From: PVC group bacterium
GTDB taxonomy: Bacteria; Auribacterota; Erginobacteria; Erginobacterales; Erginobacteraceae
Assembly: GCA_043804695.1 (NCBI GenBank)
Contig: JAZDIV010000036.1
Location: forward strand, 1-40,589
Direction: 5' to 3'
Length of the DNA stretch: 40,589 nt
The notes beneath the pieces are model-generated. The model saw nothing but the letters and a program-made list of their open reading frames with translations. It made no database searches and was not told where the DNA came from. Numbering within the stretch: position 1 is the stretch's first letter; every line of letters starts with the position of its first letter. The position numbers and the translations under genes were made by a program. Positions 286 through 33,250 of the stretch are shown one piece after another.

Positions 286-462
286 TCATGCACTCACCGG
301 CAGGGGGCTATTAATGGACAGAGGATGACGATTCTGCAGCTCGAGATTGATTTCGATCGAGCACAAGGGGCAAATGCCATGAGTAATAACTCCGGTGGGG
401 TGCGACGTCATCCACCTGCCGTCTTGCTTGATTTTTTTACACCATGCGCATTGTGTGGTCAT
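286..462 (-). CDS. 58-aa putative Zn-binding protein (CAWC...THGICPLC)
   Basis: ATG at 462 is preceded by the SD-like GGAGGGAG. The CxxCKK...HGICPxC pattern is one I recognise as a small C-terminal domain of many sensor/regulator proteins. A sigma54 promoter lies upstream. The ORF-track start at 528 has no SD. Confidence 0.7.
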   Translation of the reverse strand: MTTQCAWCKKIKQDGRWMTSHPTGVITHGICPLCSIEINLELQNRHPLSINSPLPVSA

Positions 463-537
463 TTTTCTCCCTCCTCTGAACGTACCAGGATAAGATAGTT
501 GCATTCCTGATGGTTTTCCAATCTTCAATCTTTAATT

Positions 538-554
538 AAGCAATAAGCATGCCA
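538..554 (-). promoter_or_regulatory. sigma54 (-24/-12) promoter for the 58-aa gene
   Basis: Minus strand reads TGGCATGCTTATTGCTT: GG-N10-GC, close to the TGGCAC-N5-TTGC consensus. An AT-rich tract lies upstream (about 600-640). Confidence 0.8.
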
Positions 555-756
555 ACACCATTCAAGAACGCCAACAAAATATACAATGCCTTGCACTGTA
601 AATAAATAGAATTCAATTATTTTTATTTCCACTTTTTATTGAAGCCATGCTCTTCTTCGCAATTGTCAACTCTGGTTTTCACATGACAACTCTGGTACGC
701 CCTCTTTCCGGATTTTGACAAACATTTCTCCGGTTACTAAACCGGAATGAACTAAA

Positions 757-802
757 AGTCAAACAACCGCCCCGCATTTCCATGCGGGGCGGTTGTTTGA
801 CT
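757..802 (-). terminator. Intrinsic terminator after the 673-aa gene
   Basis: Perfect 21-bp inverted repeat AGTCAAACAACCGCCCCGCAT-TTCC-ATGCGGGGCGGTTGTTTGACT, followed by a T-run on the minus strand, 15 nt after the stop codon. Confidence 0.85.
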
Positions 803-817
803 GGCCGCGTATTAACC

Positions 818-2839
818 TTATCTCAGTTTCAACAGGGGCACCATGGTAACGGTCGTGGATTTTGCCAGGGTTGGAGACGTGGTTATCTTCAGGGTTTCGG
901 TCGTTTTACTCTCTACGGCCGGCGATGAAGGGCTCTGAACACTGCTGCTTACTTTTACCGGGAGAAGCGCGGCCGGCTTTGATGCTGCTATGTCGAGCCG
1001 AGTCAAAATAACCGGTTTGATGTACGGATTCAACTGCGCCTGATCATAGTCATCACCGTTCCCGGATGAGCCGTTATCCGATATCCCGTCATTGTCCATA
1101 TCGGCACCGGGGTTGTCGGAGGAACTGTTGGGATCGTACCCCAGTTCCACTTCCTCACCGTCGGAATAGCCGTCCCCGTCGGTATCGGCCTTATCCGGGT
1201 TGGTGTTGTACTGATTCAACTCCTGCGCGTCGGTAAGACCGTCCCCGTCGGAATCATCGATCTGATCGGGCAGACCGTCTCCGTCGCTATCTGGTGTAGG
1301 AGCAAGCGGATTGGTGTCCCAATCAATCTCCTGGCCGTCGCTGAAGCCGTCATTATCACTGTCGGCATCCAGCGGATCGGTGCCTTCCATCAACTCCTCG
1401 CCATCCGCGAGGTAATCACCGTCGGTATCCCAGTCGGTGGGGTCGAGGCCGGCGGCCAGTTCCTCCTCATCAGTAAGGCCGTCGCCGTCTGAATCGTCAA
1501 TATCATCCGGGATGCCGTCTCCATCGAAATCGGGCCCATCCGAACGGGTACCGGCGTTGTTGCTCACTCCCGGGGTCCCCAGTTCAGTGGTGCCGTTATC
1601 CCAGCAGGAGGCCGGATGGGTGGATCCGTCTTTCCAGTCGAGATGATGCGTCCCGTCGATCGGGTTATCCACCCGCTCCATTGATTTCTTGGGAGAAGTA
1701 TTGGAACCGGCCAGAGGCGCGCCGCCGTCACCGGCGGTATCAAGAAGTGTCCGATACCAGCCGGCACCGGCGCCGTAGGTGTAATATTCCGATGTTTTTA
1801 GTTTTATCTGCAGGCCGGTATTGGAAAGCACAAAGTCGGTGACCTTGTCAGCTTCGTTTTTCAGGTTGCTCTGATCCGCGTGCCGGCGAGCCACCAAAAA
1901 ATAACTGTGGGGCTGAATCTCATCGTTGACGCTGAAGGTGACCGAAGTAATTTCAGAACCGCCATCGTCCTTCCGGGTTATGATCCAGTTTTTCAGTTTG
2001 ATGATGTTGGGGCTGCCGTTATAGATCTCGATCCACTCGTCGACGCTGCTTGACGCGGATCCCGCCCACATCAGTTCGCTGATATAGACCCTGAGACCAT
2101 TGTGGTTGAGATTCCTTAAAAACCAGGTGCATCCTTCCTGATCGTCATACGCGGTGGGATAAAAATCATCTTCGTTGGCGATCCCGTCGCCGTCGATATC
2201 CCAATCCTGATCATTGGGGATGCCGTCGTTGTCCGTATCATTGACGTTGGCATCGTCTTCATCCTGTACCCCGTCACCGTCAGCGTCTCCGGGGACACTA
2301 TTCTCGTCTTCAGGATCGGAACCGTACGCTTCCTCAACATGGCCGGGGACGCCGTCACCGTCATTGTCGAGATCCATGTGCCAGTTGGCGTCGCTGTCAT
2401 TGTACGGATTATCGAACCTGTCCTTGCTGTCCGTCCCGTAGAGAGCCTCCAGTGCATCCGGGTAACCGTCATCATCATCATCAGTATCCTGGGAATCGAT
2501 CACACCGTCGAAGTCCCAATCATTGATATAGACAGGGTCTGATCTCCAGTCATTGGGATTACTGCCCTGGGCATTTTCCAGCGCGTCCGGCCACTCGCCG
2601 TCGTTATCGGAATCAATCGGAGTGGATTCGGCCCAATCGGGGTCAGCGTTGTAACGCTCTTCCCAGATAGTAGGCCAGCCATCCTGATCAGGATCGGGAT
2701 CCACGACATACTGGCCCGCATAAGGATCGACCCAGTCGGCACAAACTGCGGCCGGGAGGCACCATAGTAATAAAAATGCCATAACCACCAGGCCCGGACT
2801 GAACAATTTCTTCACTCCCAGACAATACATATCTTTCAT
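818..2839 (-). CDS. Secreted Ca2+-binding protein: thrombospondin type-3-like repeats flanking a lamin-tail (LTD) domain, with a Ser/Thr/Pro-rich tail
   Basis: Signal peptide (..AFLLLWCLPAAVCA|D) and many DxDxDGxxD / DPxxxDTDGDG repeats. LTD signature VYISELMW...DEWIEIYN...SYFLVAR...LSNTG...SMER...GTPG. SD GAGGAG. Confidence 0.8.
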   Translation of the reverse strand: MKDMYCLGVKKLFSPGLVVMAFLLLWCLPAAVCADWVDPYAGQYVVDPDPDQDGWPTIWEERYNADPDWAESTPIDSDNDGEWPDALENAQGSNPNDWRSDPVYINDWDFDGVIDSQDTDDDDDGYPDALEALYGTDSKDRFDNPYNDSDANWHMDLDNDGDGVPGHVEEAYGSDPEDENSVPGDADGDGVQDEDDANVNDTDNDGIPNDQDWDIDGDGIANEDDFYPTAYDDQEGCTWFLRNLNHNGLRVYISELMWAGSASSSVDEWIEIYNGSPNIIKLKNWIITRKDDGGSEITSVTFSVNDEIQPHSYFLVARRHADQSNLKNEADKVTDFVLSNTGLQIKLKTSEYYTYGAGAGWYRTLLDTAGDGGAPLAGSNTSPKKSMERVDNPIDGTHHLDWKDGSTHPASCWDNGTTELGTPGVSNNAGTRSDGPDFDGDGIPDDIDDSDGDGLTDEEELAAGLDPTDWDTDGDYLADGEELMEGTDPLDADSDNDGFSDGQEIDWDTNPLAPTPDSDGDGLPDQIDDSDGDGLTDAQELNQYNTNPDKADTDGDGYSDGEEVELGYDPNSSSDNPGADMDNDGISDNGSSGNGDDYDQAQLNPYIKPVILTRLDIAASKPAALLPVKVSSSVQSPSSPAVESKTTETLKITTSPTLAKSTTVTMVPLLKLR

Positions 2840-3054
2840 TATCGTATCTCCTCTTGTTTTACCTTATTCTACACATCTATCCGATCCTACCGGCCCTCAT
2901 CCGGTTCCAGATGCGTTCGTCGATTCATTCTTTCATGCCTGCAATCTCGGCATCGGAGGGATCGTAAATCTTATTTTCTGGTCCTCACACTCATTACACC
3001 TCCTTTTCTTGCTTACCATTATCAACATTCACTCTTTGTCTTGCTGAATATAAC

Positions 3055-3072
3055 AAGCAAAAACCGTGCCAA
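3055..3072 (-). promoter_or_regulatory. sigma54 (-24/-12) promoter for the 673-aa gene
   Basis: Minus strand reads TTGGCACGGTTTTTGCTT, essentially perfect consensus. AT-rich tract at 3080-3135 upstream. Confidence 0.9.
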
Positions 3073-3561
3073 ACCACGTTCTTTAATGATAAATAATGAT
3101 AAAATAGTCATAATATTCTATTTTTAAATAGGTTATAGAAAACCAAGGGAACCTGCTTGTGGGAGAAAAAAGACGTTAGTTATTGCTGTTGATGGAAACC
3201 AGTGTTGATGGGTGACAACTTCCATACACATCCGCTGAAGATCCATAACCATTGATCGTATTTCCCCGCCCCGGTGAAGGGCAGGGATAACGCCTTTTGA
3301 TATACGAAGGAAGTGATTCAATGATCACGATATGAACCAGGGTGGAATGGGGCCCCCGGGCAAGCTCGTAGCCCCCATAATTCGGCGGATTATCCGCTTC
3401 GCGGGATGGCGGCATCCGCCGAAGCATGTTCTCGGATTCATCCCCGGGCAAGTCAGGGGTCTTCGGCGAAGCGGATAAAAAAAGTAACAACGAGAATATT
3501 CAACCCGACCAATCAGCTTGCCGGAAAGGCACACGAAGCCTTTAATGCTTTTTCCCGGGGG

Positions 3562-3595
3562 GGAAAAGCCGCCCCTCCATGAGGGACGGCTTTCC
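3562..3595. terminator. GC-rich hairpin, probable terminator downstream of the kinase-activator gene
   Basis: GGAAAAGCCGCCCCTC-CAT-GAGGGACGGCTTTCC imperfect stem with short A/T flanks. Confidence 0.45.
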
Positions 3596-3793
3596 TGTCG
3601 ACTTCGCGCGGGAGAATCAAAGGCGTAATAACCGCCTTCATCAGTTGCGATGGCCGGTTATCCGCCGGTATTTCCGGCCGGCATCCACCGCATCATGCCT
3701 GCACATTCACCCTCGAAATAACTATCCGGGGTCTCCCGGGGAATGGGTAGCGGATACAAAGAAGCGGTTACTACCCCGGGAAAAAGTATCCGG

Positions 3794-6700
3794 CTACGTC
3801 TCTACGCCTTCCGGTATTAACTTCTGAATTTTTTTGTACAGCCCATAGCGGCTTATCCCCATCTTGGCCGCCGCCTTGCTGACCTTTCCGCCGCACTCAT
3901 CGAGAACAGCCTGTATATACTTCTTCTCAAATTCTCCAACCGCTTCTTTAAGGGGCACGTTCAGTGGCAACGATCCTGATGGTGAAGTCGATCCACCCGC
4001 CCCGTTTTCGGCCGGCAGGATTTCAGGGAAAAGGGATGCCGGACCGATCGGCTGGCCGGGATCTGTCATCAATACCGCCCGCTGGATCACGTTCTCCAGT
4101 TCCCGGATATTCCCCGGAAAAGAATATTTCTCAATGGCTTCCATTGCTTCCGCGGTAAAACCTTTTATCTGCTTTTGCGCAGCCCGGTCATACTTATCCA
4201 GGAAGAAATAGGCTAATGCTTTTTTATCCTTCCTCTTCCGCAGGGGCGGCAAATTAATTTTCACCGTATTGAGCCGGTAGTAAAGATCGGACCGGAAGCG
4301 GCCGGATTTTATCTCAACGGTTAAATCCCTATTCGTGGCGGCGATTATTCTCACATCGACTTTCCTTTCCACGGTATCGCCGAGACGCCGGAAAGTCTGC
4401 CCTTCAATTACCCGCAGTAATTTTGCCTGGATAGCCGGAGTGGCTTCCGCGATCTCATCCAGGAAGAAAGTCGCCTGATCCGCCGCTTCCAGAATCCCTT
4501 TTTTGTCGCTGACTGCCCCGGTAAAAGCGCCTTTTTTATACCCGAATAGTTCGCTTTCCAGAAGATTTTCCGGCAGGGCGGCACAGTTCTGCTCGATAAA
4601 TACTCCATCGGCTCGCAGACTCCGGGAGTGAACAGCCCGGGCGATTATTCCCTTCCCGGTACCCGTCTCGCCCTGGAGCAGCACATTCGCCTCAGTGGGA
4701 GCAATCTGTTCAACCTGATTTAAAATGGACTGCATCTGGGAATCTTCAGCAATGATATTGGAGAAATGATGCTGGAGGGCGAAATCACGCTTCAGGTAAC
4801 GGTTCTCCTCGCTGATCCTCTCTTCGTCCTCCTTCACTTTCTCATACATCACCGCATTCTCCAGCGCCACCGCCGCCTGAGAAGCAAAGAGATGGAGCAG
4901 ATTCAGCTCCCGCTCCGTGAATAAACCTCTGGCAAACCGGTTGTCGACATAGATAACCCCGAGAAACTTTTTCTTGAACGTGACCGGGACACAGGCCACG
5001 GAACGTAAGCCGTAGGCTCTGATGCTGTCTTTTTCCTGCAATTCTTCCTGCGTCTGCGCGTTGGCAACCAGGATGGGAAACTGCCCGGCCGCGACTTTAT
5101 GAACAATCCCCCAGCTTATCTCATGTTTGTTGGAGCTGATGGATTTTTTATGAGAATTACGGGCGACTTTCACCTCCAGCTTGCCCTGGTCCTGCAGTAA
5201 TAAAAATCCCCGCTCCGCCCCGACCGCCTGATTGGCCAGATCGACAATTTTGACCAACAGTTTATCCAGCTCGAGAACCGAGGTTACCTGCCGGTATAAT
5301 TCCAGCAAACTTTCAAACGTACTGGCGTCGGACAGGAACATTCGTGACGGCGCCGCCTCGCTTGCCGGCTGGACCTTTTCTTCAAGTTCTTCCCCCATTA
5401 TTTCTCGGGTAATTTTTACCTCGTAGGTCGCGGCCATGTCCTTAAAGAGGCTGAGGGCTCTTTCCAGATATTCAATCGCCAGGCCGCGGTTTTTGGTCAG
5501 TAAAAATTTTCCATGGAACCGGTATGTCCGGGCCAGCTCAAATCGATACCCCTGGGATTGCAGAATCTGCTCCGCCGCGGTGAAACAGGATTGGACTTTT
5601 CTATCCTTACCAATCTGTTCGTAATACAGGGCCAGGGAGCGGAGATTTTCCGCCCGATTTCGCTTAATCCGGCCGGCCTGTTTTATCCCCTGCCGGCAAA
5701 GCCGGTGGATCTTCTCCAGTTGGGCATTTTTTTCACTATCCGAAAAAGATGCCAGTTTATCTTTATCGGAAAGATACAGTTCCGCCAGGTAGGCATAGGT
5801 GAGACTCTGCATCGTCGGAACAAGCTTATGTTTTTCTATCAATATCCGGCTTTCTTCCAGCTCCATCTCCGCTCGCTGTAAGTCGCCTTTACAGTGGTAC
5901 GCCCTTCCCAGAATCTGATGGGCTACCGCCCGCGGGTTGAGGAGTTCGGGAGAATTGGACACGGCGAGAGCCTGGCTTCCGTATTCTATCGCCAGATCAA
6001 GCTCACCCATCATCACCGAGACCAATGTTCTACCGTTCCAGGCATCGGTCACGGCTCGCCGATCTTCCATTTTTTCGGCCAGCGCGGCTAACTCGGTGAA
6101 TGTACTTGCCGCCCGGTGAAGATCCCCGATGAATATATAGCTCCAGGCGAGATAACGGAGAGCGTAGCCCAGTTCCAGCGGATCCCCCACCGATTTCCAG
6201 ATTTCAACCGATTCAACCAGCTTGGAAACCGCCTCCCTGCTCCGCCCCTGATTCATGAGGCAGTATCCGAGATAACTCAGGCATTGAGCAATCCCCCAGG
6301 AACGAGAGACCAGCTTCTCGTTGATCTTCCGGCTCTTTTCAATGAACTTCTCCGCTCGGGGAAATAACCCGATCTGGCTGCAGAGTAAGCCGTGCATGTC
6401 AAACGCCTGGGCCAGGTGTTCAGACTCACCCAGCTTCTGGGCCATGTTCAGCTGTCTCAGATTGCACCAGAGAGCGCGGGATAGATCGCCCAGAAAGAAG
6501 CAGACGTAGCTGGTCTGGCTAAACAGCCGGATACGTTCTATCAAAGAAAAGTCATCCCGGGATTTTTTCTTTTTCCTCTTGAAAAAATTCGATAAAAAAA
6601 CTCGAGCCGACAGGAGTGCCACCCAGTAACCGCTTCTCGTGATCAGGGCAAACTTATGCCGGGGAACCCCATAGCCGTACTCCTGGAGCGCCTGTTCATG

Positions 6701-9208
6701 ATAGCGGAGAGCATCCTGGAAGTTCCCTTTTCTGAAGCAGATACTTCCTATATAACTTCGCAAAAGAGCCGTCTGCCGCGCATCCGGGGAATATCGGATC
6801 GCCTCCTGGAAACAGGAGACTGCCTTATCGTACATGCTCAGCCGATAACACGTCTCACCGAGCTTGATATGAATATCCAGCCAGAGCTTGGAGAGTTCCT
6901 CGCTTTCGTAACTGGGGAAAAGGGTCAGTGCCCGCTCCAGAAAAAGGACCACCTCCCGGAAAGAACAGCGGGAGCGGGCGAGATCGGCGGAAAGAAGCGA
7001 ATAACGAAAGGCTTTATTATGGCTGTAGCCGAGATAGAAGTGCTTGCTTAATTCAAATGCAACCCGGTCCAGGGCCGAGCTGCTTTTTTCTTCCAGAATG
7101 CTTCCCGCTTTTTCATGGAGTCTTCGGCGCGTCTCCGAATCCATCGAATTATATACGGTATCCATAATCTGCTGATGGGCAAACATGTACCCGCCCCCCC
7201 CCATCGTTCCCCGCTCCATAATCATCTGCGCGTCCCGGACTTCATCGATAATGGGGAAAAGCTCCTCGGCTTTTTTGCCGGATAGATGTTTGAGTGCATC
7301 CAGCGTGAATCGAAGCCCCAGAATGGAGGCAATCTGCAACACCTCGGTCATCTCCGGCTTCAATCGCCCGAGTCTATTGGCCAGAATCTCGGCCAGGGTC
7401 CGGGGCATTGCGTCCCGTATTCTCGGTTCCCGGACCAGTTTCCAGATATCCTGTTCAAGAATCAGGATACCGATTTCAATCGCTGATTTAATGTATTCAA
7501 TCAGGAAAAGGGGATTTCCTCCCGTTGCCTTGAATATATACTGTGATACATCCGGTGATATTTTTTCGGGAGCCGTTCTCAGTATCTCGGCTAAAGTGTG
7601 CTCGTTCTGCTCAAAATCGAGCGGGAGTAACTGCTGGTTGGTAAACGAGGGGTGGTTTAACTGTAACCCGGCAATCAGGTTCCCCAGCATACTTCCCCGG
7701 TAAACCTGACCCGGGCAGAGGGTAGCGATCAGGAGAATGGGCTTGTTAATCGAATTTTCAACGAGGTAATTTAGGAAGTATAAGCTCCCGTCATCGGCCC
7801 AGTGGATGTTGTCGATAAACATGATGATCCCGTTGGTTTCATTCGCGATCGCTTCCAAAAAGGTGTACAGCTTGGAAAAAATATCTTTTTGAAGATTCGT
7901 CGGATTGACATGGGGAAGATCTGAAAGTCTGCGCCAGGTCCGAAGAAGTTCCGATATCACTTCATTGAAATCTTCATAGTTTTTACCCTGGTTCTTGAGC
8001 CCTTCCAGCAGCTTAAACTGATACTCTTTTGGATAGCTGTTCAGAGTTTCGACCAGGGCGGCCAGCATATCGAGCAGGAGCTGGCATGGCTGCTCTTTGA
8101 GCCCCGGCGAACACTGGGCGGCTACGAGGAGCATCTGTCTTTTCAGACCGATTTTCAGGAACTCCTGTCCGAGTCGTGTCTTTCCGATACCCGGATCGCC
8201 GGATAAAAATATAATGTCGCCGCCCGAGGACGGCAGGGAAACCAGCATCTGCTCGAAGACCTGAAGCTCCCGATCACGACCCCGAATCTGAGGATCCAGG
8301 TTTAGCCATCCTTTCTTTTCTTTGCGCTGGAGGGTAAAAACCTGATCCTCCTGCCCCCTGTCGACAAGCCTGATGAAATAAGCCAGGTCCTCTTTTAAAC
8401 CTTCCGCGGTAAGATAGCGTTCTCCCGGTTCTTTACGGAGAAGTTTCAGTATGATCTCTTCCAGGGGGCGGGGCAGGGAAGGAACGATCCTGGTCGGGGG
8501 AATGGGTTCTTCCGCGACCTGTTTATGGAGCAGTGTAGGCAGGTCCCGGGCGACCAGAGGCAGACATCCGGTAGTCATCTGATACAAGACAATCCCCAGT
8601 GAATACAGATCGGAACGCTGATCCACCGGTTGCCCCAGGACCCCGGTTTGCTCGGGCGACATGTAGGCGGCGGTCCCCACCATCTCTCCGGGTTTTTCCC
8701 GCAAAATAAGCGAAAGTAATCTGGAGAACCCGAAATCAAGGAGGATAACCCGGCATTCTCCCTGCTTCTCTCCGGGCAGGATAAATATATTCCCCGGTTT
8801 AATATCGAGATGGAGGATTTTCTTTGCATGCACATAGGACAGGGCGTCAGCCACCTGCATCGCAATATCGGCCGCCCGGCGGAAATTAATCTTTTTTCCA
8901 CCCCCTATTTCCGAGTCCAGGCTATGTCCTTCCAGCAGGGGCAGGACAAGATACACCTGCCCTTCATGGACACCCACATTATACAGAGGGATAATATTAG
9001 GATGGTTCAGCCCGGACAGGATGCCCGCCTCATGCCGGAGACGCGCGACAGAAACCATGAGTTCCTGCTCATTTTTATCATCACTGAGAACTATTTTGAC
9101 GGCGACCGGACGGTTTTCAATCGTATCCCGGGCCTTGTAAACGGTGCTCACCGGAGTGCTTGCGATCTTATCGAGAATCTGATACCGATTATTGGCAAGC
9201 GTCTTCAT
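3794..9208 (-). CDS. Ser/Thr kinase - STAND/AAA ATPase - TPR - GAF - sigma54 activator (bEBP) - Fis HTH fusion, 1804 aa
   Basis: Kinase motifs VAVK, HLDIKPGN, DFG, GTAAYMSPEQ, DLYSLG. Walker A GDPGIGKT and Walker B FIDNIHWAD, then TPR-like helices and a GAF domain (RSVACVPV..YVDN). bEBP motifs GETGTGK, ESELFG..GAFTGA, FLDEI, FRSDLYYRL, FPGNIREL. C-terminal HTH SKAAAKMGISRYGLYKKI. Confidence 0.93.
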   Translation of the reverse strand: MKTLANNRYQILDKIASTPVSTVYKARDTIENRPVAVKIVLSDDKNEQELMVSVARLRHEAGILSGLNHPNIIPLYNVGVHEGQVYLVLPLLEGHSLDSEIGGGKKINFRRAADIAMQVADALSYVHAKKILHLDIKPGNIFILPGEKQGECRVILLDFGFSRLLSLILREKPGEMVGTAAYMSPEQTGVLGQPVDQRSDLYSLGIVLYQMTTGCLPLVARDLPTLLHKQVAEEPIPPTRIVPSLPRPLEEIILKLLRKEPGERYLTAEGLKEDLAYFIRLVDRGQEDQVFTLQRKEKKGWLNLDPQIRGRDRELQVFEQMLVSLPSSGGDIIFLSGDPGIGKTRLGQEFLKIGLKRQMLLVAAQCSPGLKEQPCQLLLDMLAALVETLNSYPKEYQFKLLEGLKNQGKNYEDFNEVISELLRTWRRLSDLPHVNPTNLQKDIFSKLYTFLEAIANETNGIIMFIDNIHWADDGSLYFLNYLVENSINKPILLIATLCPGQVYRGSMLGNLIAGLQLNHPSFTNQQLLPLDFEQNEHTLAEILRTAPEKISPDVSQYIFKATGGNPLFLIEYIKSAIEIGILILEQDIWKLVREPRIRDAMPRTLAEILANRLGRLKPEMTEVLQIASILGLRFTLDALKHLSGKKAEELFPIIDEVRDAQMIMERGTMGGGGYMFAHQQIMDTVYNSMDSETRRRLHEKAGSILEEKSSSALDRVAFELSKHFYLGYSHNKAFRYSLLSADLARSRCSFREVVLFLERALTLFPSYESEELSKLWLDIHIKLGETCYRLSMYDKAVSCFQEAIRYSPDARQTALLRSYIGSICFRKGNFQDALRYHEQALQEYGYGVPRHKFALITRSGYWVALLSARVFLSNFFKRKKKKSRDDFSLIERIRLFSQTSYVCFFLGDLSRALWCNLRQLNMAQKLGESEHLAQAFDMHGLLCSQIGLFPRAEKFIEKSRKINEKLVSRSWGIAQCLSYLGYCLMNQGRSREAVSKLVESVEIWKSVGDPLELGYALRYLAWSYIFIGDLHRAASTFTELAALAEKMEDRRAVTDAWNGRTLVSVMMGELDLAIEYGSQALAVSNSPELLNPRAVAHQILGRAYHCKGDLQRAEMELEESRILIEKHKLVPTMQSLTYAYLAELYLSDKDKLASFSDSEKNAQLEKIHRLCRQGIKQAGRIKRNRAENLRSLALYYEQIGKDRKVQSCFTAAEQILQSQGYRFELARTYRFHGKFLLTKNRGLAIEYLERALSLFKDMAATYEVKITREIMGEELEEKVQPASEAAPSRMFLSDASTFESLLELYRQVTSVLELDKLLVKIVDLANQAVGAERGFLLLQDQGKLEVKVARNSHKKSISSNKHEISWGIVHKVAAGQFPILVANAQTQEELQEKDSIRAYGLRSVACVPVTFKKKFLGVIYVDNRFARGLFTERELNLLHLFASQAAVALENAVMYEKVKEDEERISEENRYLKRDFALQHHFSNIIAEDSQMQSILNQVEQIAPTEANVLLQGETGTGKGIIARAVHSRSLRADGVFIEQNCAALPENLLESELFGYKKGAFTGAVSDKKGILEAADQATFFLDEIAEATPAIQAKLLRVIEGQTFRRLGDTVERKVDVRIIAATNRDLTVEIKSGRFRSDLYYRLNTVKINLPPLRKRKDKKALAYFFLDKYDRAAQKQIKGFTAEAMEAIEKYSFPGNIRELENVIQRAVLMTDPGQPIGPASLFPEILPAENGAGGSTSPSGSLPLNVPLKEAVGEFEKKYIQAVLDECGGKVSKAAAKMGISRYGLYKKIQKLIPEGVET

Positions 9209-9266: not shown

Positions 9267-9294
9267 ATGTTAATTCAATATTGAACAATGTCAA
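9267..9294 (-). promoter_or_regulatory. Candidate sigma70 promoter for the kinase-activator, with an internal 12-bp palindrome
   Basis: Minus strand TTGACA-N16-TAACAT. The palindrome TTCAATATTGAA (9274-9285) lies between the boxes. Confidence 0.4.
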
Positions 9295-9479: not shown

Positions 9480-9552
<73 letters not shown>

Positions 9553-9554
9553 TA

Positions 9555-9584
9555 AAAAAGATTCCCCGGACGGGGAATCTTTTT
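9555..9584 (+). terminator. Intrinsic terminator after tRNA-Phe
   Basis: AAAAAGATTCCCCG-GA-CGGGGAATCTTTTT palindrome directly after the tRNA. Confidence 0.85.
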
Positions 9585-9652
9585 GATATTACCCTTGCGC
9601 GCACCCGCTGGAACGGGCGGAAACAAACGGATACTTCCGGGAGGAAGCCACC

Positions 9653-11143
9653 ATAAAATTCAGGAGAGGGGCGGGGATACTTCTTCACATCACCTCGCTG
9701 CCGGGGCCGCACGGGATCGGCTCCCTGGGCAGGGAAGCGTATCAGTTTGTTGACTGGCTGGCGGACGCCGGCCAGCGGTTCTGGGAGGTCCTCCCCATCA
9801 ACCCGATCGGCTATGGCAACTCGCCCTATTCCAGCCCCTCCGCTTTCGCCGGCGCTCCCAGCCTGATCAGCCTGGAGAGACTGGTGGAGACCGGCTATCT
9901 TTTACCGGAAGACCTCCCACCGGAAGAGATATTCCCGAAGGACCGGGTCGATTTTCCCCGGGCCATCCGGATCAAGAAGGAGGCGATCGGCGCTGCTTTC
10001 CGGTGCTTCCGCCGGAAGACGGATAGGCGGCAGCAGAATGACTTCGATGACTTCCGCGCCGAGCACTCCCCCTGGCTCGACAACTATGCCCTCTACAAGT
10101 CCATCAAGGATCATTTCCAGGGAGCCCCCTGGTACGAGTGGCCCGCCGAGATAGCCTTCCGGGAACCGGCGGCGCTCCGGGCCTGTGAGAACAGGCTGGA
10201 GGAGAAGATCAGTGAGTCACGATTCGCCGAATTTCTTTTTTTTAAACAGTGGAAGAGGCTCCGCGGCTACTGCAACGAGACGGGGATCAAGCTCATCGGG
10301 GACATCCCTTTCCTGGTCAGCTATGACAGCGCGGACGTCTGGGTCCATCGCCACCTCTTCCTCCTCGACGAGCACGGACGCCGGCGGGCTCTTTCCGGAG
10401 TGCCGCCCACCGGCCACTCCGGCGTCAGCCAGATCTGGGGCAACCCGCTCTACGATTGGGTCAAAATGTCGGAGGACCGGTTCAACTGGTGGATGAGGAG
10501 GTTCCGGACCATCCTCGAGCTGACCGACGTCGTCCGGGTGGATCACTTCTCCGGGTTCACCATCGCCTGGCACATCCCCCCGGAGGCGAAGACGTCGGCC
10601 GAGGGGCAGTGGTTCTACGGTCCGGGGGCGGCTCTCTTCGGCCTGCTGGAAAAGCAGCTGGGGACTCTTCCCATCATCGCCGAGGCGCTGGAGCCGGTGC
10701 ACTTCGAGGAGACAAAATCGCTGATGGAGATTCTCGATTTCTCCAGCACCCGGGTCATTCAGTTCGCCTTCCTGGAAAACGACCGGAGCCCGCACCTGCC
10801 GGAAAATTATCCTTTCAACTGCGCGGCCTATACCGGCACTCACGACACCGATACCATCTGCGGGTGGTTCGCTTCGCTCCGGGATGAAGAAACCAAGCAC
10901 GTTCTCTCTTATTTCGGGACGGATCACGAGGAGATCAACTGGAAGTTCATCCGGCGGGCGCTCTCTTCCGTGGCCGACCTGGCCGTCATCCCCCTCCAGG
11001 ACGTGCTGGGGCTGGGCAGCGAGGCGAGGATGAACGCCCCCGGGCGGGAAAGCGGACAGTGGGAGTGGCGGTACGACCCGGCGATGCTGACCGGGGACCT
11101 GGCCAAGCGCCTGGCCGAGATGACTCGGTACTACGGGCGTTAA
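9653..11143 (+). CDS. malQ: 4-alpha-glucanotransferase (amylomaltase, GH77), 496 aa, apparent ATA start
   Basis: The frame extends 77 codons upstream of the track start to give the conserved N-terminus KFRRGAGILLHITSLP..GIG..SPY. Catalytic-region motifs RVDHF, IAE and YTGTHDTDT, plus RMNAPG..WEWR. SD GGAGGA lies 7 nt before ATA. Confidence 0.88.
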   Translation: MKFRRGAGILLHITSLPGPHGIGSLGREAYQFVDWLADAGQRFWEVLPINPIGYGNSPYSSPSAFAGAPSLISLERLVETGYLLPEDLPPEEIFPKDRVDFPRAIRIKKEAIGAAFRCFRRKTDRRQQNDFDDFRAEHSPWLDNYALYKSIKDHFQGAPWYEWPAEIAFREPAALRACENRLEEKISESRFAEFLFFKQWKRLRGYCNETGIKLIGDIPFLVSYDSADVWVHRHLFLLDEHGRRRALSGVPPTGHSGVSQIWGNPLYDWVKMSEDRFNWWMRRFRTILELTDVVRVDHFSGFTIAWHIPPEAKTSAEGQWFYGPGAALFGLLEKQLGTLPIIAEALEPVHFEETKSLMEILDFSSTRVIQFAFLENDRSPHLPENYPFNCAAYTGTHDTDTICGWFASLRDEETKHVLSYFGTDHEEINWKFIRRALSSVADLAVIPLQDVLGLGSEARMNAPGRESGQWEWRYDPAMLTGDLAKRLAEMTRYYGR

Positions 11144-21545: not shown

Positions 21546-22268
21546 TTAGTGTCTTTGTGTCTTGGAGGTGAATACCCGCCCGGCCTGATAAGCATCGCTC
21601 AACGCGGTGGGATGGCGAAGGATATCCCCCTTCCGGCTGATCTTCCGGAAGAGCAGGCTCCCGGTCAGGCGGACGTTGAGCGGTTCCAGAAAATACTTGA
21701 TGGTCAGAAGGGATCCGGCGAAAAGTTCCCTGCCGCCGGTCGCCCCCAGGAGCAAGGCGAATGCCTCTTTGGGAGGTTGCCCATGGTCTGAAAGTTTCTC
21801 CGAAACATGGTCTGCCGAATTGCTATTCCGGAGTCTCAATAAATTATCTGTGGGAGGGGTTTCCAACCCCGATTCAGGAAGCTTGGAATCGGGCTTAGAA
21901 AGCCCTTCCACAGAACTTAGCGCCGCTGGCGCTGAGTTGAGGATATACTTCCGGGCCCAGAGGGCCTGGCAGCGGTCGATCAGCGCCTTGAACTGGGCCG
22001 GCAGGCCATAGAAATAAATGGGGGCGGAGATAACGATCTTTCCGGCCGCGAGCAGTTTCGGGTAAACTGTCTGCATACCGTCATCGATATTACACTCTCC
22101 CGTCCTCTCACAGGCCAGGCATTCCGTACAGGGGGAGATGCCGGGGTCGCACACGGAGATCTTTTCATATGCCGTCCCATCTTCCCCTGCCCCGCCCAGG
22201 AAAGCGTCAAGCAACAGGTCAGAGTTCCCCCCCTTTCTTGGACTACCCATTATTGCTACTATATCCAT
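21546..22268 (-). CDS. Iron-sulfur flavoprotein / NADPH-FMN reductase family, with an internal insertion of about 55 aa
   Basis: GSPRKGGNS, CTECLAC..TGEC (Cx2Cx2Cx5C), APIYFYG..AQFKALIDR. The insertion lies between ARKYILN and KEAFALL. Confidence 0.85.
   Translation of the reverse strand: MDIVAIMGSPRKGGNSDLLLDAFLGGAGEDGTAYEKISVCDPGISPCTECLACERTGECNIDDGMQTVYPKLLAAGKIVISAPIYFYGLPAQFKALIDRCQALWARKYILNSAPAALSSVEGLSKPDSKLPESGLETPPTDNLLRLRNSNSADHVSEKLSDHGQPPKEAFALLLGATGGRELFAGSLLTIKYFLEPLNVRLTGSLLFRKISRKGDILRHPTALSDAYQAGRVFTSKTQRH
21848..21913. repeat. REP doublet inside the flavoprotein coding sequence
   Basis: CTGTGGGAGGGGTTTCCAACCCCGATTC ... GAATCGGGCTTAGAAAGCCCTTCCACAG: an inverted pair of related hairpins, 66 nt. 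Confidence 0.8.
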
Positions 22269-22912: not shown

Positions 22913-24778
22913 CTATTTCTTATACAGCTCCTCCTTCACGTCCTCCAATCCAAGTGCATCCAGGGTCACCGGCCTGATTAATCCGTTCTTATCATAACCC
23001 CAGAGCCGGTAGTAATCGTCGAGCATCACGTCGAGATGGACCACCTGGCCTTTGGCGGGACCTTCATCCTCCGGTTCTTTCAAGAAGCGATCCGACAGGG
23101 TGTCGTCCTTCCGGCTCATCCCCTCCCGCTGGTTGAACGCCCTCCTGAGGACACAGATCCGCTTCCCGATTCTTTTCAGGTTCTCCTCGTCATTGAACGC
23201 TTCCACCCCGGTCAGGCTGAAGAGAATGTCGGGGAAGTCGGGATAGTAATAGCAGAGTGGGTACATGGTGCCGTACTTGCAGAGGATCAGGGAGTCGACC
23301 ACGGCGTAAAAATGCTCCACGTCGTATACCATCTGCCCCTTGAATTCTTCGCTGTGCCGGTCAAGCGCGTTTTTGAGCTTGTCCTCCCCGTAGCGGCGGC
23401 GGCCGATCTCCGGGTAGCCGATCTCATCGATCACCGAGAGCCCGCGCAGATGGTCGGCGCCCCGGACCGAAGTGGCGTGGGTCAGCCCCCCCGAGCGGTG
23501 GGCCCGGCCATCCTGTCCGGATATTTCCTGGCCCTTGACGTGCATCGCGAACTTTTCCGCCCCGCCACCGATCTTTTTGGCGGCCCGCTTCACCCCCTCG
23601 GCCAAAAGATCGCCCAGCCCCTGGCGGTAAGCGATAGCTTTGACCAGCTGCACGATCTTCTCCCCGTCGGTCCAGTTCACTTCCTCCGGGATCAGACCGT
23701 GCTCGCGGCACTCCATGGCAAAACCGATCGCGCTCCCGCAGGAGATGGTGTCCATCCCCAGGTCGTTGCAGAGGTGGTTGGCGTAGATCAGGTCGTCGAG
23801 GTCGGAGTTCAGGCAGCCGGTCCCGAGCGAGACGACTGTCTCGTACTCCGGCCCTTCGCCGATGTTGTCATACTTTTTGGAGAGGGTGACCAGCTTGCAC
23901 TGGATCTTGCAGTTGAAGCAGGAGTTCTTGGCGATCCGGAACTCGTCCCGGATCCGGGCCGAGCCGACCTTTTCCACCAGGTCAAAGACCCCCTTCTTGT
24001 GGTTCCGGGTGGGAAGCCGCCCGATCTCGTTCTCGATCTCGACCAGGCCGGCCGTACCGAACTCCCGGAGCGAAAGGCAGCCGGCGGAGTCCGGTCCCTC
24101 GAGAAAACGGTATTTTGACTCCTGAAAAAGTTCACCGAGACGCTTCGGGTCGGCCGCGGTGATGTCCCCGGTTCCCCGAACCGCGATCGCCTTCAGGTTC
24201 TTGCTCCCCATCACCGCCCCCAGCCCCGAGCGCCCGAAGGCCCGGTGCTTGTCGGTCATCACGGCGGCGAACCGGACCAGGTTTTCCCCGGCCGGGCCGA
24301 TGCAGGCCACCCGCTCGAGCGAATATTTGGTCCGCAGACAGTCGGTCGTCTGGTTGACGGTCTTCCCCCATATCTCGGACGCGTCTTGAAGCGTGACCTG
24401 GTCGTCGATGATCAGGAGATAGACCGGCTTCTCCGACCGCCCCTCGAAGACTATGAAGTCGTAGCCGGCGTATTTCAACTCCGGGCCGAGATGCCCTCCG
24501 CAGTGCGCCTCCGCCCATCCCCCGGTCAGCGGCGATTTGGCGGCCATCATGCAGCGCCCGCTCTGGGGAAAGAGGGTCCCGGTGGTCGGACCGGTCGCCA
24601 GGATGAGGATGTTTTCGGGAGAGAGGGGATCGATCCCGGGCTTCAACTCGTCCCAGAGGATCCGGGCGCAGATGCCGGTCCCTCCGATGTATTCGATCAG
24701 GTTTTCGGGAAACGGCTTTTTCCTGATCGATCGGTCGGTCAGATTGATCCTGAGATAATGTCCGGCGTATCCGTGCAT
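22913..24778 (-). CDS. aor: Aldehyde:ferredoxin oxidoreductase family (W-bis-pterin), copy 1
   Basis: KSPLTGG, CIGPAGENLV, GRSGLGAVMGSKNLKAI, CFNCKIQC, GPEYET, GMDTISCG, RGADHL, DSLILC. SD AAGGAG. Confidence 0.93.
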   Translation of the reverse strand: MHGYAGHYLRINLTDRSIRKKPFPENLIEYIGGTGICARILWDELKPGIDPLSPENILILATGPTTGTLFPQSGRCMMAAKSPLTGGWAEAHCGGHLGPELKYAGYDFIVFEGRSEKPVYLLIIDDQVTLQDASEIWGKTVNQTTDCLRTKYSLERVACIGPAGENLVRFAAVMTDKHRAFGRSGLGAVMGSKNLKAIAVRGTGDITAADPKRLGELFQESKYRFLEGPDSAGCLSLREFGTAGLVEIENEIGRLPTRNHKKGVFDLVEKVGSARIRDEFRIAKNSCFNCKIQCKLVTLSKKYDNIGEGPEYETVVSLGTGCLNSDLDDLIYANHLCNDLGMDTISCGSAIGFAMECREHGLIPEEVNWTDGEKIVQLVKAIAYRQGLGDLLAEGVKRAAKKIGGGAEKFAMHVKGQEISGQDGRAHRSGGLTHATSVRGADHLRGLSVIDEIGYPEIGRRRYGEDKLKNALDRHSEEFKGQMVYDVEHFYAVVDSLILCKYGTMYPLCYYYPDFPDILFSLTGVEAFNDEENLKRIGKRICVLRRAFNQREGMSRKDDTLSDRFLKEPEDEGPAKGQVVHLDVMLDDYYRLWGYDKNGLIRPVTLDALGLEDVKEELYKK

Positions 24779-24886
24779 AATGGAACTCCTTACTGTAAAA
24801 GTGCCTGGACTAAACTTAGCCCTCGCGCATACCTGTAATGTTGTTTAATGCTTGCACATTCTTATTTTTCCGGAGGAAAAATAAGA

Positions 24887-25162
24887 TTATCCTCCCGCCA
24901 CGGACGGGAAGATCGTGACGCTCTCTTCTTCGCCCACCACTCTGCCCGGATCGGTCTGGGAGACTCCGTTGATCAATATGACAACCGGGGGGCGGCGGAC
25001 CATTTCGCCGTCTCTTGTTTCCAGGAGCAGTTCCCCGATCGGGGAACCGTAAACAGCGGCCAGGTGCTTCAGGATCTCCAGGATCGTCTTCTTCCCGGAG
25101 ATCGAGACCCGGCCGGTCCGGGCCCGGTCTCTGAGCACTCCGAATAACTTGACCGTGGGCAT
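24887..25162 (-). CDS. Ubiquitin-like MoaD/SAMP-type protein (C-terminal VAGG)
   Basis: TVKLFGVLR...VVILING...VTIFPSVAGG. Confidence 0.88.
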   Translation of the reverse strand: MPTVKLFGVLRDRARTGRVSISGKKTILEILKHLAAVYGSPIGELLLETRDGEMVRRPPVVILINGVSQTDPGRVVGEEESVTIFPSVAGG

Positions 25163-25171
25163 TTCCGGCTC

Positions 25172-25408
25172 CTACCCCCCTCCCAGCCGCATGGTTACCT
25201 GAAGCTCCGCATCCCCGGTAATCACATCATCGAGATGCATCGGACGTCCGGCCCGGATAATCTGGATAAACCCCAGCTCCTTCGACGTGTAACCGAGAGC
25301 TTTCCCCAGAACAGTCCGGACCCTGATGCCTTTACGGCATTTCCATTCGACCAGTCTTCCGGCCGGGGGCAAACGAAGCGGTCCGATCAATCGAAGGCGA
25401 ATTATCAT
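25172..25408 (-). CDS. Divergent, basic MoaD/ThiS-like protein (C-terminal LGGG)
   Basis: 78 aa, beta-grasp-like pattern, ends MRLGGG, sandwiched between two other ubiquitin-like genes. Confidence 0.7.
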   Translation of the reverse strand: MIIRLRLIGPLRLPPAGRLVEWKCRKGIRVRTVLGKALGYTSKELGFIQIIRAGRPMHLDDVITGDAELQVTMRLGGG

Positions 25409-25431
25409 GACAGCGTGACGATCCGAGCGGC

Positions 25432-25677
25432 TTACCCTCCGGCCACGATGGGGATGAAAGCGATCCGATCGCCGTCTTGAAGGGGCACATTAAAATCCTT
25501 CACCATCGCCGAATTGCGGGTAATCTTGATGTTTTTATGTTCGGCCACGTCCAGCCCGTACTCGGTTTTGACCCAATTTAGAAACTCAGGAAGAGTGGTC
25601 CCGAGAAAGTCAACCTGGTTGCTCCGCGCCGGGAAATAGCGCTGGAACTTGCTGATGGCGATTACAGTTATTTTCAT
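25432..25677 (-). CDS. MoaD/ThiS-like sulfur carrier (C-terminal VAGG)
   Basis: ...LQDGDRIAFIPIVAGG. Confidence 0.88.
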   Translation of the reverse strand: MKITVIAISKFQRYFPARSNQVDFLGTTLPEFLNWVKTEYGLDVAEHKNIKITRNSAMVKDFNVPLQDGDRIAFIPIVAGG

Positions 25678-25740
25678 AAGACATTACCTGTTCCATACCA
25701 TAGAGAATGAGTTGATGGTATCAATTGTATTGACACTAGT

Positions 25741-25955
25741 TAAATTCCAAATAACAAATTACAGATAACAAATAAATCTCAATGACCAAAATGCCAAATT
25801 CCAAACATCCTTCATCTGCAGTCACTGCGAGCAGTGGAAATAGCACAATAAATCATCATCTTTTTAGAAAGAATAATTCCGGCTGGTTTGCCAGGGGCGT
25901 TTGGTGCTTGGGATTTGGAATTTGTTTAGTATTTAGATATTAGGATTTAGGATTT
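25741..25955. repeat. Inverted heptamer arm element, homologous to 16961-17195
   Basis: Left arm TAAATTCCAAATAACAAATTACAGATAACAAATAAATCTCAATGACCAAA...CCAAAC (25741-25806) and a complementary right arm at 25899-25955. Confidence 0.75.
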
Positions 25956-25959
25956 GTAT

Positions 25960-30825: not shown

Positions 30826-30891
30826 TGATCTTTATGTTTATGATGGTTAAATCCCAAATAACAAATTTTAATTAGGTATCGACGTTGTCTG

Positions 30892-31389
30892 TTATGGCGC
30901 CTTAGTTGTCTTCGGATGCTTCTTCTTTTTTGACCGCATCCTCCGGGCGGCCAGCTTGACCGCCTCGATGATCTGCACATAGCCGGTGCACCGGCAGAGG
31001 TTGCCGTCAAGGGCTTCTTTGATCTCTTCGTCCGACGGGTTCGGGTTCCGGTCCAGCAACGCCTTGGCGGCAAGAATCATTCCCGGGGTGCAGAACCCGC
31101 ACTGGATGGCGGCCGACTCGACAAAGGCAAGCTGGAGGAGATGGGGTTTCCGGACCGTGCCCAGGGCTTCAACGGTGGTCACCTTTCTCCAGTCGGCGGT
31201 GACCGCCAGGATCAGGCAGGAATTGACCGGACGTCCGTCCATGATCACGGTACAGGCGCCGCAGGCGCCTTCCCCGCAGCCGAACTTGACGCTCTTGTAG
31301 CCCAGCCGCCGCAGGAGGTCGAGAAGGGTCTCCGACGGTCTCACCTCTACCTGATGCTGCCTGCCATTGACTGTTAAAACAATTTCCAT
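30892..31389 (-). CDS. [2Fe-2S] subunit (CoxS/XdhC-like), 165 aa
   Basis: True start MEIVLTVNG at 31389. [27 protein letters not shown]. Confidence 0.92.
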   Translation of the reverse strand: MEIVLTVNGRQHQVEVRPSETLLDLLRRLGYKSVKFGCGEGACGACTVIMDGRPVNSCLILAVTADWRKVTTVEALGTVRKPHLLQLAFVESAAIQCGFCTPGMILAAKALLDRNPNPSDEEIKEALDGNLCRCTGYVQIIEAVKLAARRMRSKKKKHPKTTKAP

Positions 31390-32249: not shown

Positions 32250-32625
32250 TATAAATTAGCTCGCTGCGCTCGCAAATTTATCAGAATAACAATATGATAA
32301 ATTTATTCCAAGTTACTTCTGCTTTGTGATTATTAGCATCCAGCGATTCACGCCATAACGATAAATTTTACCGTATTATTTCCCCGCTAAAATAATACTC
32401 TAATCCTCTCCTCAACGGCACCTCGACTCAAAGCGCGACACTATAGGGGATTACATCCCGGGCGGCAAGTTTTTTCCCGGAGAGCTCATTCCGCCGCCGG
32501 CGAAGGGATCGGCTGTTCCTGTTTTAGGTAAATAAAATATTTAACCTGAGGCGACAGAGTCGCTTTTGAAAGCGAGCAATATTGGAAGCATAGTAATGTC
32601 CAATGTCAAGACGCGACACCGATTA

Positions 32626-33087: not shown

Positions 33088-33097
33088 GACTTAATAC

Positions 33098-33250
33098 GGG
33101 GGATAGAAGGGATTAGCAGGGAGGAGGATGGAAAAGCAAGGAATAGTACGGAACAGCACGGAAATCGCCAGCCTCTTCCCTGCTTTTCCCTGCTCATCCC
33201 CGCTGCTCCCTGCTCATCCCTGCTGCTCCCTGCTGCTCCCTGCTTTTCCA
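33098..33250. repeat. Inverted decamer arrays (GGGAGCAGCA / TGCTGCTCCC)
   Basis: A degenerate left arm at about 33098-33165, and about 7 TCCCTGCTGC-like units at 33176-33250 overlapping the end of the FAD subunit gene. Confidence 0.75.

Follow-up and report, generated by a model that had tools for sequence, protein, structure and literature searches.

What does a bacterial regulator control that joins a protein kinase, a STAND-type ATPase and a sigma54 activator in a single chain? This question is raised by the left part of contig C36 (JAZDIV010000036.1, assembly GCA_043804695.1) from a PVC group bacterium of the phylum Auribacterota. The whole 40,589-bp contig was analyzed (the window), along with the rest of the source genome (G000; 2.97 Mb, 155 contigs, 88.17% complete). 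On the minus strand, the window encodes an 1804-amino acid (aa) protein (P0001, hereafter the giant regulator), and downstream of it lie a gene for a secreted protein with a lamin-tail domain (LTD) and a gene for a small four-cysteine (Cys4) protein. A preliminary description of this DNA had regarded the three genes as a self-contained circuit. The best explanation overall, which we give a probability of roughly 0.55, is that the giant regulator binds an enhancer with the sequence ACCAGAGTTGWCA and activates both the two adjacent and five distant sigma54 promoters.

Sigma54 promoters of the two downstream genes

Candidate sigma54 promoters were identified with the pattern TGGCAY-N5-TTGCW, and looser -24/-12 sites were scored out of 11. 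Exact matches in the window were limited to 3056-3071 and 539-554, both on the minus strand and directly downstream of the giant regulator gene, and the GG-N10-GC promoters that had been assigned to the two downstream units in the preliminary description both agree with this stricter pattern at every position. The genome as a whole contains 11 exact sites, compared with about 5 expected from its base composition. The rpoN gene, whose presence had been proposed as a check, is located on another contig (G000:C22:87-563, minus strand; Sigma54_DBD E 2.2e-59; 488-aa open frame). Judged by their sequence, the sigma54 promoters are very probably real. The strong terminator that had been described between the two units was recovered as well (Table 1); an alternative reading of this hairpin as a miRNA was dropped, as the Rfam match was sub-threshold (E up to 1) and judged spurious. 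Elsewhere in the window, a sigma54-like site with one mismatch (AGGCATTCGCCTTGCT, 21751-21766, minus strand) lies upstream of a 240-aa FMN-reductase-like open reading frame (ORF) at 21546-22268 on the same strand.

The product of the first downstream gene (P0002) has a signal-peptide-like N-terminus, one LTD and five TSP3_bac repeats. Database searches returned no full-length relative of this protein, as all matches covered only 15-34% of the query and were made through the TSP3 repeats. For the second gene, the start is most likely the ATG at 462 behind GGAGGGAG, which gives a 58-aa protein; the 80-aa ORF with a TTG start that had been listed earlier is probably too long. The small protein matched no Pfam or NCBIfam family and no word-index homolog of 31-102 aa, and the Atlas search returned only unnamed clusters of 57-59 aa at 0.93. 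A paralog is encoded elsewhere in the genome by an 86-aa ORF (G000:C42:10183-10443; L125:4183-4443), which is 54% identical over residues 1-39, keeps all four Cys residues and shares the pattern TTQCAWC...NGRW...HGICPxCS. The paralog gene directly follows the gene for a 762-aa beta-helix protein, and no sigma54 consensus was seen upstream of it. Several relatives also have the Cys4 motif within larger ORFs.

A 13-nt element shared by dispersed sigma54 promoters

When the regions preceding the 11 exact sigma54 sites of the genome were compared, a shared 13-nt element emerged, ACCAGAGTTGWCA, which is present in five exact copies versus about 0.1 expected. Each exact copy is followed, 122-151 nt further downstream, by a -24/-12 site with a score of at least 10/11; in a control with random windows, a site with such a score was found in only 22 of 2000. 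When degenerate copies are counted, seven sigma54 promoters on four contigs (C36, C46, C114 and C119) bear the element, mostly as two direct copies 20 nt apart, with distances to TGGCA of 142/122, 143/123 or 151 nt. All of the exact copies are intergenic and in front of genes. The 100 nt between element and promoter are 60-73% A+T at the seven promoters (73% upstream of the LTD promoter and 70% upstream of the small-gene promoter), compared with 42% for the genome. The predicted target genes are listed in Table 1; all of the large target proteins have signal-peptide-like N-termini and extracellular domains.

Because the element upstream of the small gene recurs at five further sigma54 promoters on C46, C114 and C119, the genes controlled are likely to form a regulon for secreted proteins that is scattered over the genome rather than a self-contained circuit. 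The two products originally named as the output, the secreted LTD protein and the small protein, do both stand behind exact sigma54 promoters, but they would share their control with five more predicted targets elsewhere in the genome.

The seven promoters fall into four classes, between which the best local alignments cover only the element or the promoter; members of one class are duplicates over the entire region. Across contigs, the cassette that reaches from -159 to +23 is identical at 162 of 183 positions between C46 and C119, where it precedes unrelated genes. Cassettes of about 180 bp that extend from the element to just past the -12 box and are about 89% identical are found at C46:44198-44379, C46:48316-48492 and C119:8032-8214. 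It looks as if enhancer-promoter units have been copied as modules. Taken by itself, and without regard to which protein reads it, the enhancer regulon is probably real.

Two further exact sigma54 sites of the genome are worth recording. The site at G000:C83:21949-21964 (plus strand) precedes a signal-peptide protein ORF of 1056 codons that reaches the contig end and follows a gene for a 1102-aa GEVED protein; its upstream region has only 4-mismatch copies of the element, at 146, 126 and 121 nt, and the promoter is possibly an eighth, divergent member of the regulon. The site at G000:C71:17012-17027 (minus strand) is without the shared element and is followed after 190 nt by an ORF beginning MPKVIGIDLGTTNS. 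By eye, this ORF reads like DnaK; sigma54 control of a chaperone would be unusual.

Domain architecture of the giant regulator

All of the parts that had been attributed to the 1804-aa polypeptide in the preliminary description, namely kinase, STAND, TPR, GAF, an intact GAFTGA activator and a helix-turn-helix (HTH), were recovered with Pfam, and the STAND fold was matched by structure. Within the spans given in Table 1, AAA_16 matches residues 308-494 (E 2.2e-24), the TPR_12 and TPR_MalT matches fall within residues 780-1146 (TPR_MalT at 1060-1146), Sigma54_activat (PF00158) matches residues 1485-1651 over positions 1-167 of its 168-position profile and AAA_lid_14 matches residues 1658-1737. 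A profile search of the genome's contigs likewise placed the PF00158 match at C36:4256-4756. The sigma54 module carries Walker A (GETGTGKG), GAFTGA, Walker B (LDEI) and the arginine fingers (RSDLYYRL), all kept in the homolog alignment, and on the strength of this AAA+ domain and the C-terminal HTH the protein is by sequence a bacterial enhancer-binding protein (bEBP). Taken together, the domains are best explained as a cytoplasmic one-component regulator with kinase-STAND-TPR and GAF parts as its input and a NifA-like sigma54 activator as its output. As a rule, control of such proteins lies with a receiver, GAF, PAS or V4R domain or with a partner protein, and their activity depends on ring assembly, as described in the NtrC1/DctD literature; STAND proteins normally carry simple effectors.

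The kinase domain retains K38, E60, D135 (HLD), N140, D158 (DFG) and E186, which occupy invariant or nearly invariant alignment columns, and its Gly-rich loop GxGxxG is degenerate (IASTPVST). The three closest homologs (P0004-P0006) share this degeneration (IARRRRHS-like), and more distant ones retain the loop as GSGGLG. Because this loop is lost, kinase activity of the giant regulator is uncertain. In the STAND module, Walker A is intact (GDPGIGKT) and Walker B reads FIDN, compared with DD in all 10 aligned homologs. An AlphaFold model of residues 291-1000, built with a 40-row alignment (pLDDT 86.3, pTM 0.83), shows a TPR region composed of all-helical repeats, and its top Foldseek match is the STAND-TPR protein PH0952 (6MFV_A, E 8.5e-15); further matches are Apaf-1 (E 7.8e-9), Avs3, SAMD9, a chain of the maltose-system entry 8bob and CED-4. 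Because the model best matches PH0952 and then Apaf-1, the STAND label for the middle part of the protein is justified by the predicted structure, which comprises NBD, HD, WHD, an arm and a repeat sensor. Of the earlier proposal that this part is a ligand-triggered oligomerizing switch, the fold is thus confirmed by the structure match, but the switch behavior is still drawn from family knowledge.

The giant regulator gene itself has a sigma70-like promoter candidate (Table 1), and consensus and element scans found neither a sigma54-like site nor the shared element upstream of it. Behind the gene, in the 720-nt spacer before the LTD promoter, folding is not unusual (z -1.57) and none of the ORFs has a Pfam match. 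A sub-threshold Rfam match of 3562-3653 to RcsR1 (22 vs 60 bits, E up to 1) was judged spurious.

Table 1. Features of the giant regulator locus and the predicted element-bearing promoters elsewhere in the genome. Positions are those of the window (contig C36) unless another contig is named.
Feature	Position	Strand	Basis or remark
Small CxxC...HGICPxC (Cys4) protein gene, 58 aa + stop	286..462	-	ribosome-binding site GGAGGGAG
Predicted sigma54 promoter of small gene, TGGCATGCTTATTGCT (C36:539)	539..554	-	exact consensus; transcription start site expected near 528; target: small Cys4 protein
Tandem element upstream of small gene, ACCAGAGTTGTCA (684-696) and ACCAGAGTTGACA (664-676)	664..696	-	20 nt start to start; 142 and 122 nt before promoter
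Predicted intrinsic terminator between LTD and small-gene units	757..802	-	20-bp stem, 12 G-C pairs, T run; 21-nt perfect arms
Secreted LTD + TSP3-repeat protein gene (P0002), 673 aa	818..2839	-	LTD E 5.2e-12, TSP3_bac E 1.1e-26
Predicted sigma54 promoter of LTD gene, TGGCACGGTTTTTGCT (C36:3056)	3056..3071	-	exact consensus; transcription start site expected near 3045; target: LTD/TSP3 protein
Single inverted weaker element copy, TGGAAACCAGTGTTGA	3193..3208	+	125-139 nt upstream of LTD promoter; inverted repeat with 666-681, 14/16 match
Probable terminator of giant regulator gene	3563..3595	-	15-bp hairpin then UUUUCC; RNA fold of 3360-3610(-)
Giant regulator gene (P0001), 1804 aa	3794..9208	-	open frame, Pfam domains, N-terminus aligned to homologs' N-termini
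Fis-type HTH_8 DNA-binding domain, residues 1758-1797	3818..3937	-	HTH_8 E 2e-11
Sigma54-interaction AAA+ domain + lid, residues 1485-1737	3998..4756	-	Sigma54_activat E 4.3e-67, AAA_lid_14
GAF domain, residues 1313-1449	4862..5272	-	GAF E 5.2e-15 (Pfam)
TPR sensor region, approx. residues 730-1250	5459..7021	-	TPR_12 E 6.9e-26, TPR_MalT, helical repeats in model
STAND core (NBD-HD-WHD-arm) + start of TPR sensor, residues 291-1000	6209..8338	-	AAA_16, model, Foldseek
Hanks-type kinase domain, residues 10-272	8393..9181	-	Pkinase E 4.5e-42 (Pfam)
Sigma70-like promoter candidate of giant regulator gene (TTGACA-16-TAACAT)	9267..9294	-	consensus scan, 10/12
tRNA-Phe(GAA)	9480..9552	+	edge of segment missing from same-genus genome; only Rfam gathering-level match
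Predicted promoter of TSP3-CBM96 protein gene, 1177 aa	C46:44357		
Predicted promoter of subtilase-TSP3 protein gene, 986 aa	C46:48475		
Predicted promoter of subtilase gene	C46:52455		gene cut by contig end
Predicted promoter of TSP3-CBM96 protein gene, 1148 aa	C114:27628		
Predicted promoter of MBL-GEVED-FG-GAP protein gene, 863 aa	C119:8040		

Distribution of the architecture and comparison with known systems

As the preliminary description had suggested, the databases were searched for the same domain architecture, and 115 of the best 119 matches of the giant regulator combine PF00069 with PF00158; of the other four, three have GGDEF instead and one has histidine-kinase domains. Where the source is named, the matches are usually called 'sigma 54-interacting transcriptional regulator', and the phyla named include Gemmatimonadota, Acidobacteriota, Planctomycetota and Zixiibacteriota. 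The homologs P0005 and P0006 are about 50% identical to the giant regulator. On sequence evidence, the kinase-bEBP architecture is widespread in metagenomes and environmental bacteria and is not rare; literature searches found no paper on a kinase-bEBP fusion. A metagenome scan with generic kinase peptides gave 80 loci of 34-43% identity, none with kinase and bEBP parts in one frame, and was set aside, and a scan of genome contigs for relatives returned only a bEBP-domain match in an unrelated metagenome-assembled genome.

In the phylum of the giant regulator, two proteins of about 1750 aa (G001:C14 and G076:C70) have the order Pkinase-AAA_16-GAF-(PAS)-HisKA-HATPase_c and align to residues 8-1023 and 113-720 of the giant regulator, respectively. 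Because the same chassis ends in a bEBP, a GGDEF or a HisKA-HATPase_c output, kinase-STAND-TPR-GAF is, judging from these alignments, a reusable input unit with exchangeable outputs. The loci of the two chassis relatives are L139:7510-12753 and L140:2601-7889; in the former, the kinase is N-terminally shortened, with a profile match that begins no earlier than position 100, and the genes nearby include those for a LuxR-type response regulator and an ECF sigma factor.

The C-terminal 500 or so residues have the same order of GAF, helical linker, AAA+ (GAFTGA) and HTH_8 as the GAF-type bEBPs NifA, NorR and FhlA, and the best NCBIfam model for the giant regulator is that of NifA (E 1.2e-103). Like these proteins, the giant regulator should work on sigma54 promoters through enhancer sites that lie upstream of them. 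Unlike them, it has about 1300 extra N-terminal residues (kinase, STAND and TPR), and its scores fall below every curated equivalog cut-off, with 347.7 bits for the GAF-AAA+ part versus 528.85 for NifA (TIGR01817) and 320.4 bits versus 476 for NorR. With PH0952, MalT and the LAL regulators it shares the NBD-HD-WHD-arm-TPR fold and the TPR_MalT match, but in sequence it is 13% identical to PH0952, its Walker B reads DN, and the LuxR-type C-terminal HTH of MalT and the LALs is replaced by HTH_8, the only one found. Whereas the effectors of this group are LuxR or ArsR HTHs acting on sigma70 promoters, the effector of the giant regulator would be a second ATPase, of the AAA+ type, that must itself oligomerize to remodel the sigma54 holoenzyme. 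The N-terminal chassis, as found in G001:C14 and G076:C70, recalls the cyanobacterial STK-GAF-HK 'dual protein kinases' of the HstK type (described in PMC2176072), but the giant regulator lacks HisKA and HATPase_c and has a sigma54 activator as its output. Residues 308-760 also match profile positions 483-917 of the TOMM kinase/cyclase fusions (TIGR03903, E 1.4e-72), which have the same kinase-linked AAA_16/STAND module; unlike these fusions, the giant regulator scores 245 against a cut-off of 705.75 and has neither a cyclase domain nor a TOMM context.

Phyletic pattern and genomic setting

No full-length giant regulator was found in 40 relatives, and the 13-mer is absent from 39 of them. Two matches in the remaining one (G014) were rejected as regulon sites, as one is within a gene, the other precedes a sigma70-like promoter and neither is near a sigma54 site. 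The composite element-promoter pattern was not found in G001, G003, G011 or G013. In the same-genus genome G001, the MBL target does have an ortholog (76% identity over residues 2-359), and neither a sigma54 site nor the element was found in the 1.5 kb before that gene.

A search of 79 genomes of the phylum gave an ortholog of the giant regulator (51% identity) in G058 alone, which belongs to another family. The next gene downstream of it encodes a 953-aa signal-peptide protein with a Peptidase_S74 domain and is preceded by an A+T-rich tract (genome 70% G+C), a weak GG-N10-GC box and AACCAGA 126 nt upstream of the box. This layout resembles that of the source locus, which is suggestive only. 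Directly upstream of this ortholog lies the gene for a secreted protein with three DxDGDG-rich repeats of about 80 aa (G058:C1:192500-193350; L138:6520-7330, minus strand), and this acidic protein probably binds Ca. Elsewhere in G058, a consensus sigma54 promoter (G058:C8:79828-79843; L144) is followed by a small CxxC ORF beginning MKEICEYCFSEL.

Synteny with G001, at about 80% identity, runs from 9409, just before the tRNA-Phe, rightwards and is absent leftwards, and the segment 1-9408 has a G+C content of 0.49-0.56 compared with 0.58 for the genome. The locus of the giant regulator is therefore accessory and, by its composition and synteny, probably acquired. To the right of the tRNA, the window encodes ordinary metabolism, including GH77, an epimerase, aldehyde:ferredoxin oxidoreductases, molybdo-hydroxylases and MoeA. 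Two aldehyde:ferredoxin oxidoreductase genes, two xanthine-dehydrogenase-type subunit sets, MoeA and MoCF genes at 22913-27816 and 28501-36402 form a molybdo/tungsto-enzyme neighborhood that is unrelated to the circuit of the giant regulator. The GH77 ORF is listed from the GTG at 9884 (419 aa), yet its homology to the same-genus gene (nucleotide and tblastx) begins at 9653, Pfam coverage comprises profile positions 77-463 and the frames of relatives have about 500 aa; in the stretch 9553-9884, the N-terminal part of the frame may be interrupted by a stop codon, begin at an unusual codon or be misassembled. The gap between the tRNA and the GH77 gene is about 890 nt in G001 and 86 nt in the source genome.

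Which activator reads the element

Four true bEBPs were found in the genome: the giant regulator, the activator of a pilus cluster and two receiver (REC)-type proteins encoded on C1 and C81. The pilus-cluster activator has its own pilin promoter and the C1 protein has an adjacent PAS kinase; beside the orphan C81 gene there is no kinase gene. No sigma54-like site scoring at least 9 was found within the 9-10 kb examined around each of the C1 and C81 loci. The giant regulator is the only one of the four that adjoins element-bearing promoters. Based on this adjacency, the phyletic pattern and family knowledge, we infer that the giant regulator, rather than another bEBP, reads the element and activates the regulon, an assignment that the sequence data favor modestly.

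Several observations weigh against this assignment or against the extent of the regulon. The lone inverted element copy at the LTD promoter has three mismatches to the 13-mer, and its 14/16 match was equaled in 14 of 300 shuffled versions of the two C36 upstream regions; this promoter is the weakest member, and its link to the shared element is marginal. Because the three promoters of class A are duplicates of one another, as are the two of class B, the seven promoters amount to four independent cases. In G058, the box downstream of the ortholog scores 8/11, and none of the six strict-pattern sites listed, some of them apparently inside genes, has the shared element. The phyletic argument presumes that orthologous HTHs retain their specificity. 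A PAS-HK, REC and REC-PAS-HK gene set adjoins the C46 targets and, as the C81 bEBP has no neighboring kinase gene, a two-component route to the same enhancer is possible. With the genome 88% complete, further bEBPs may be unassembled. Finally, with the Gly-rich loop of the kinase lost and DN for DD in the STAND Walker B, either module may handle ATP in an atypical way.

The readings to which these observations lead differ in how much of the pattern they explain. If the element were read by another activator, this would most plausibly be the orphan C81 bEBP, fed by the C46 gene set, whose two histidine kinases and stand-alone receiver are encoded right before the first C46 target; in that case, the giant regulator would have other targets, or would play no more than a part at the two promoters beside it. 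The weak element of the LTD promoter and the absence of a kinase gene next to the C81 gene and of a sigma54-like site in the 10 kb examined around it would suit such a reading. We consider it unlikely, as C81 adjoins no element-bearing promoter, compared with two for the giant regulator, and as its orthologs (58-69% identity) occur in three relatives, G003, G011 and G013, all without the 13-mer and the composite pattern; orthologs of the C1 activator (60-83% identity) occur in 13 of 13 relatives. The similar layout at the G058 ortholog also speaks for the giant regulator. An activator hidden in the unassembled 12% or so of the genome, with the adjacency of the giant regulator being a coincidence, would fit an assembly in 155 contigs in which a target gene is cut at the end of C46 and the gene behind a sigma54 promoter is cut at the end of C83. 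This appears quite improbable, as chance would need to have placed two of the seven regulon promoters no more than 3.3 kb downstream of an unrelated bEBP when just four bEBPs were detected in the genome, and the downstream arrangement of the G058 ortholog is comparable. That the promoter-like and enhancer-like sequences are functionless chance matches is very improbable: consensus matches by themselves are no proof, but the excess of exact 13-mers, their fixed distance from top-scoring -24/-12 sites, their intergenic positions before genes and the retention of the 183-bp cassette before unrelated genes are hard to ascribe to chance.

A different doubt concerns how the giant regulator is controlled. 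Its bEBP part could be active without the kinase-STAND-TPR part being a ligand-triggered switch, in which case the latter would serve as a scaffold, a pseudokinase docking site or a constitutive oligomerizer, and GAF alone would gate the AAA+ domain as in NifA and NorR. Consistent with this, neither P0001 nor its three closest homologs has a Gly-rich loop, the Walker B DN is found in P0001 only and relatives have stand-alone GAF-AAA+-HTH proteins of 500-650 aa that are 37-40% identical to residues ~1296-1797; moreover, in NorR the GAF domain is an established repressor of the AAA+ domain (PMC2941729). Set against it are the conservation of the STAND Walker A and of the whole NBD-HD-WHD-arm-TPR fold, and the occurrence of one chassis with three outputs (bEBP, GGDEF and histidine kinase), which argues that the chassis itself is a signal-processing unit. 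We regard control by GAF alone as a real but less than even prospect.

A proposed mechanism and its significance

Returning to the giant regulator as the reader of the element, activation may be pictured as follows. Dimers of its HTH_8 domain would occupy phased copies of the 13-mer ACCAGAGTTGWCA, typically two that are 20 bp apart, about 120-150 bp upstream of the -24 box, and the A+T-rich spacer would let the DNA loop. The AAA+ ring would then engage sigma54 through GAFTGA and open the holoenzyme complexes at the promoters of the LTD/TSP3 and 58-aa Cys4 genes, and it would do the same at the five promoters on three other contigs, in front of genes for TSP3-CBM96, subtilase-TSP3, subtilase and MBL-GEVED-FG-GAP proteins. 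The predicted output would be a programme of extracellular Ca-binding matrix and protease. Such a regulon of secreted and surface proteins fits sigma54 control of the cell exterior, the thesis stated in the title of Francke et al. 2011 (PMC3162934).

For the input, a signal perceived by the TPR sensor, the GAF sensor or both could flip the STAND core into an ATP-bound, oligomerizing form, and STAND multimerization would assemble the C-terminal AAA+ domains into an active ring; the kinase domain without its Gly-rich loop might be an auxiliary regulator or a second output. This proposal builds on the STAND switch, as PMC6468293 describes bacterial STANDs mainly as transcription activators such as MalT and Ser/Thr kinases that switch by inducer-dependent multimerization, and on the control of AAA+ by GAF in NorR (PMC2941729). 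By this analogy, an oligomerization switch in the giant regulator is tentative. The full picture is speculative: an NLR-like sigma54 switch in which two ATPases, one acting through the other, convert a cytoplasmic signal into enhancer-dependent expression of a horizontally acquired exoprotein regulon, whose promoters have spread as enhancer-promoter cassettes of about 180 bp.

The giant regulator is a well-preserved member of a widespread, unstudied class of bEBPs, for which a candidate enhancer and regulon are newly defined here. Its locus is well suited as a test bed: the regulator is intact, the candidate 13-nt enhancer has a fixed phasing, seven target promoters are proposed, and none of these is present in the genome of a close relative. 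If the proposed mechanism is true, it would show how oligomerization-driven sensing of the NLR type is wired to sigma54, and how a new regulon is built from enhancer-promoter cassettes copied in front of genes for secreted proteins.

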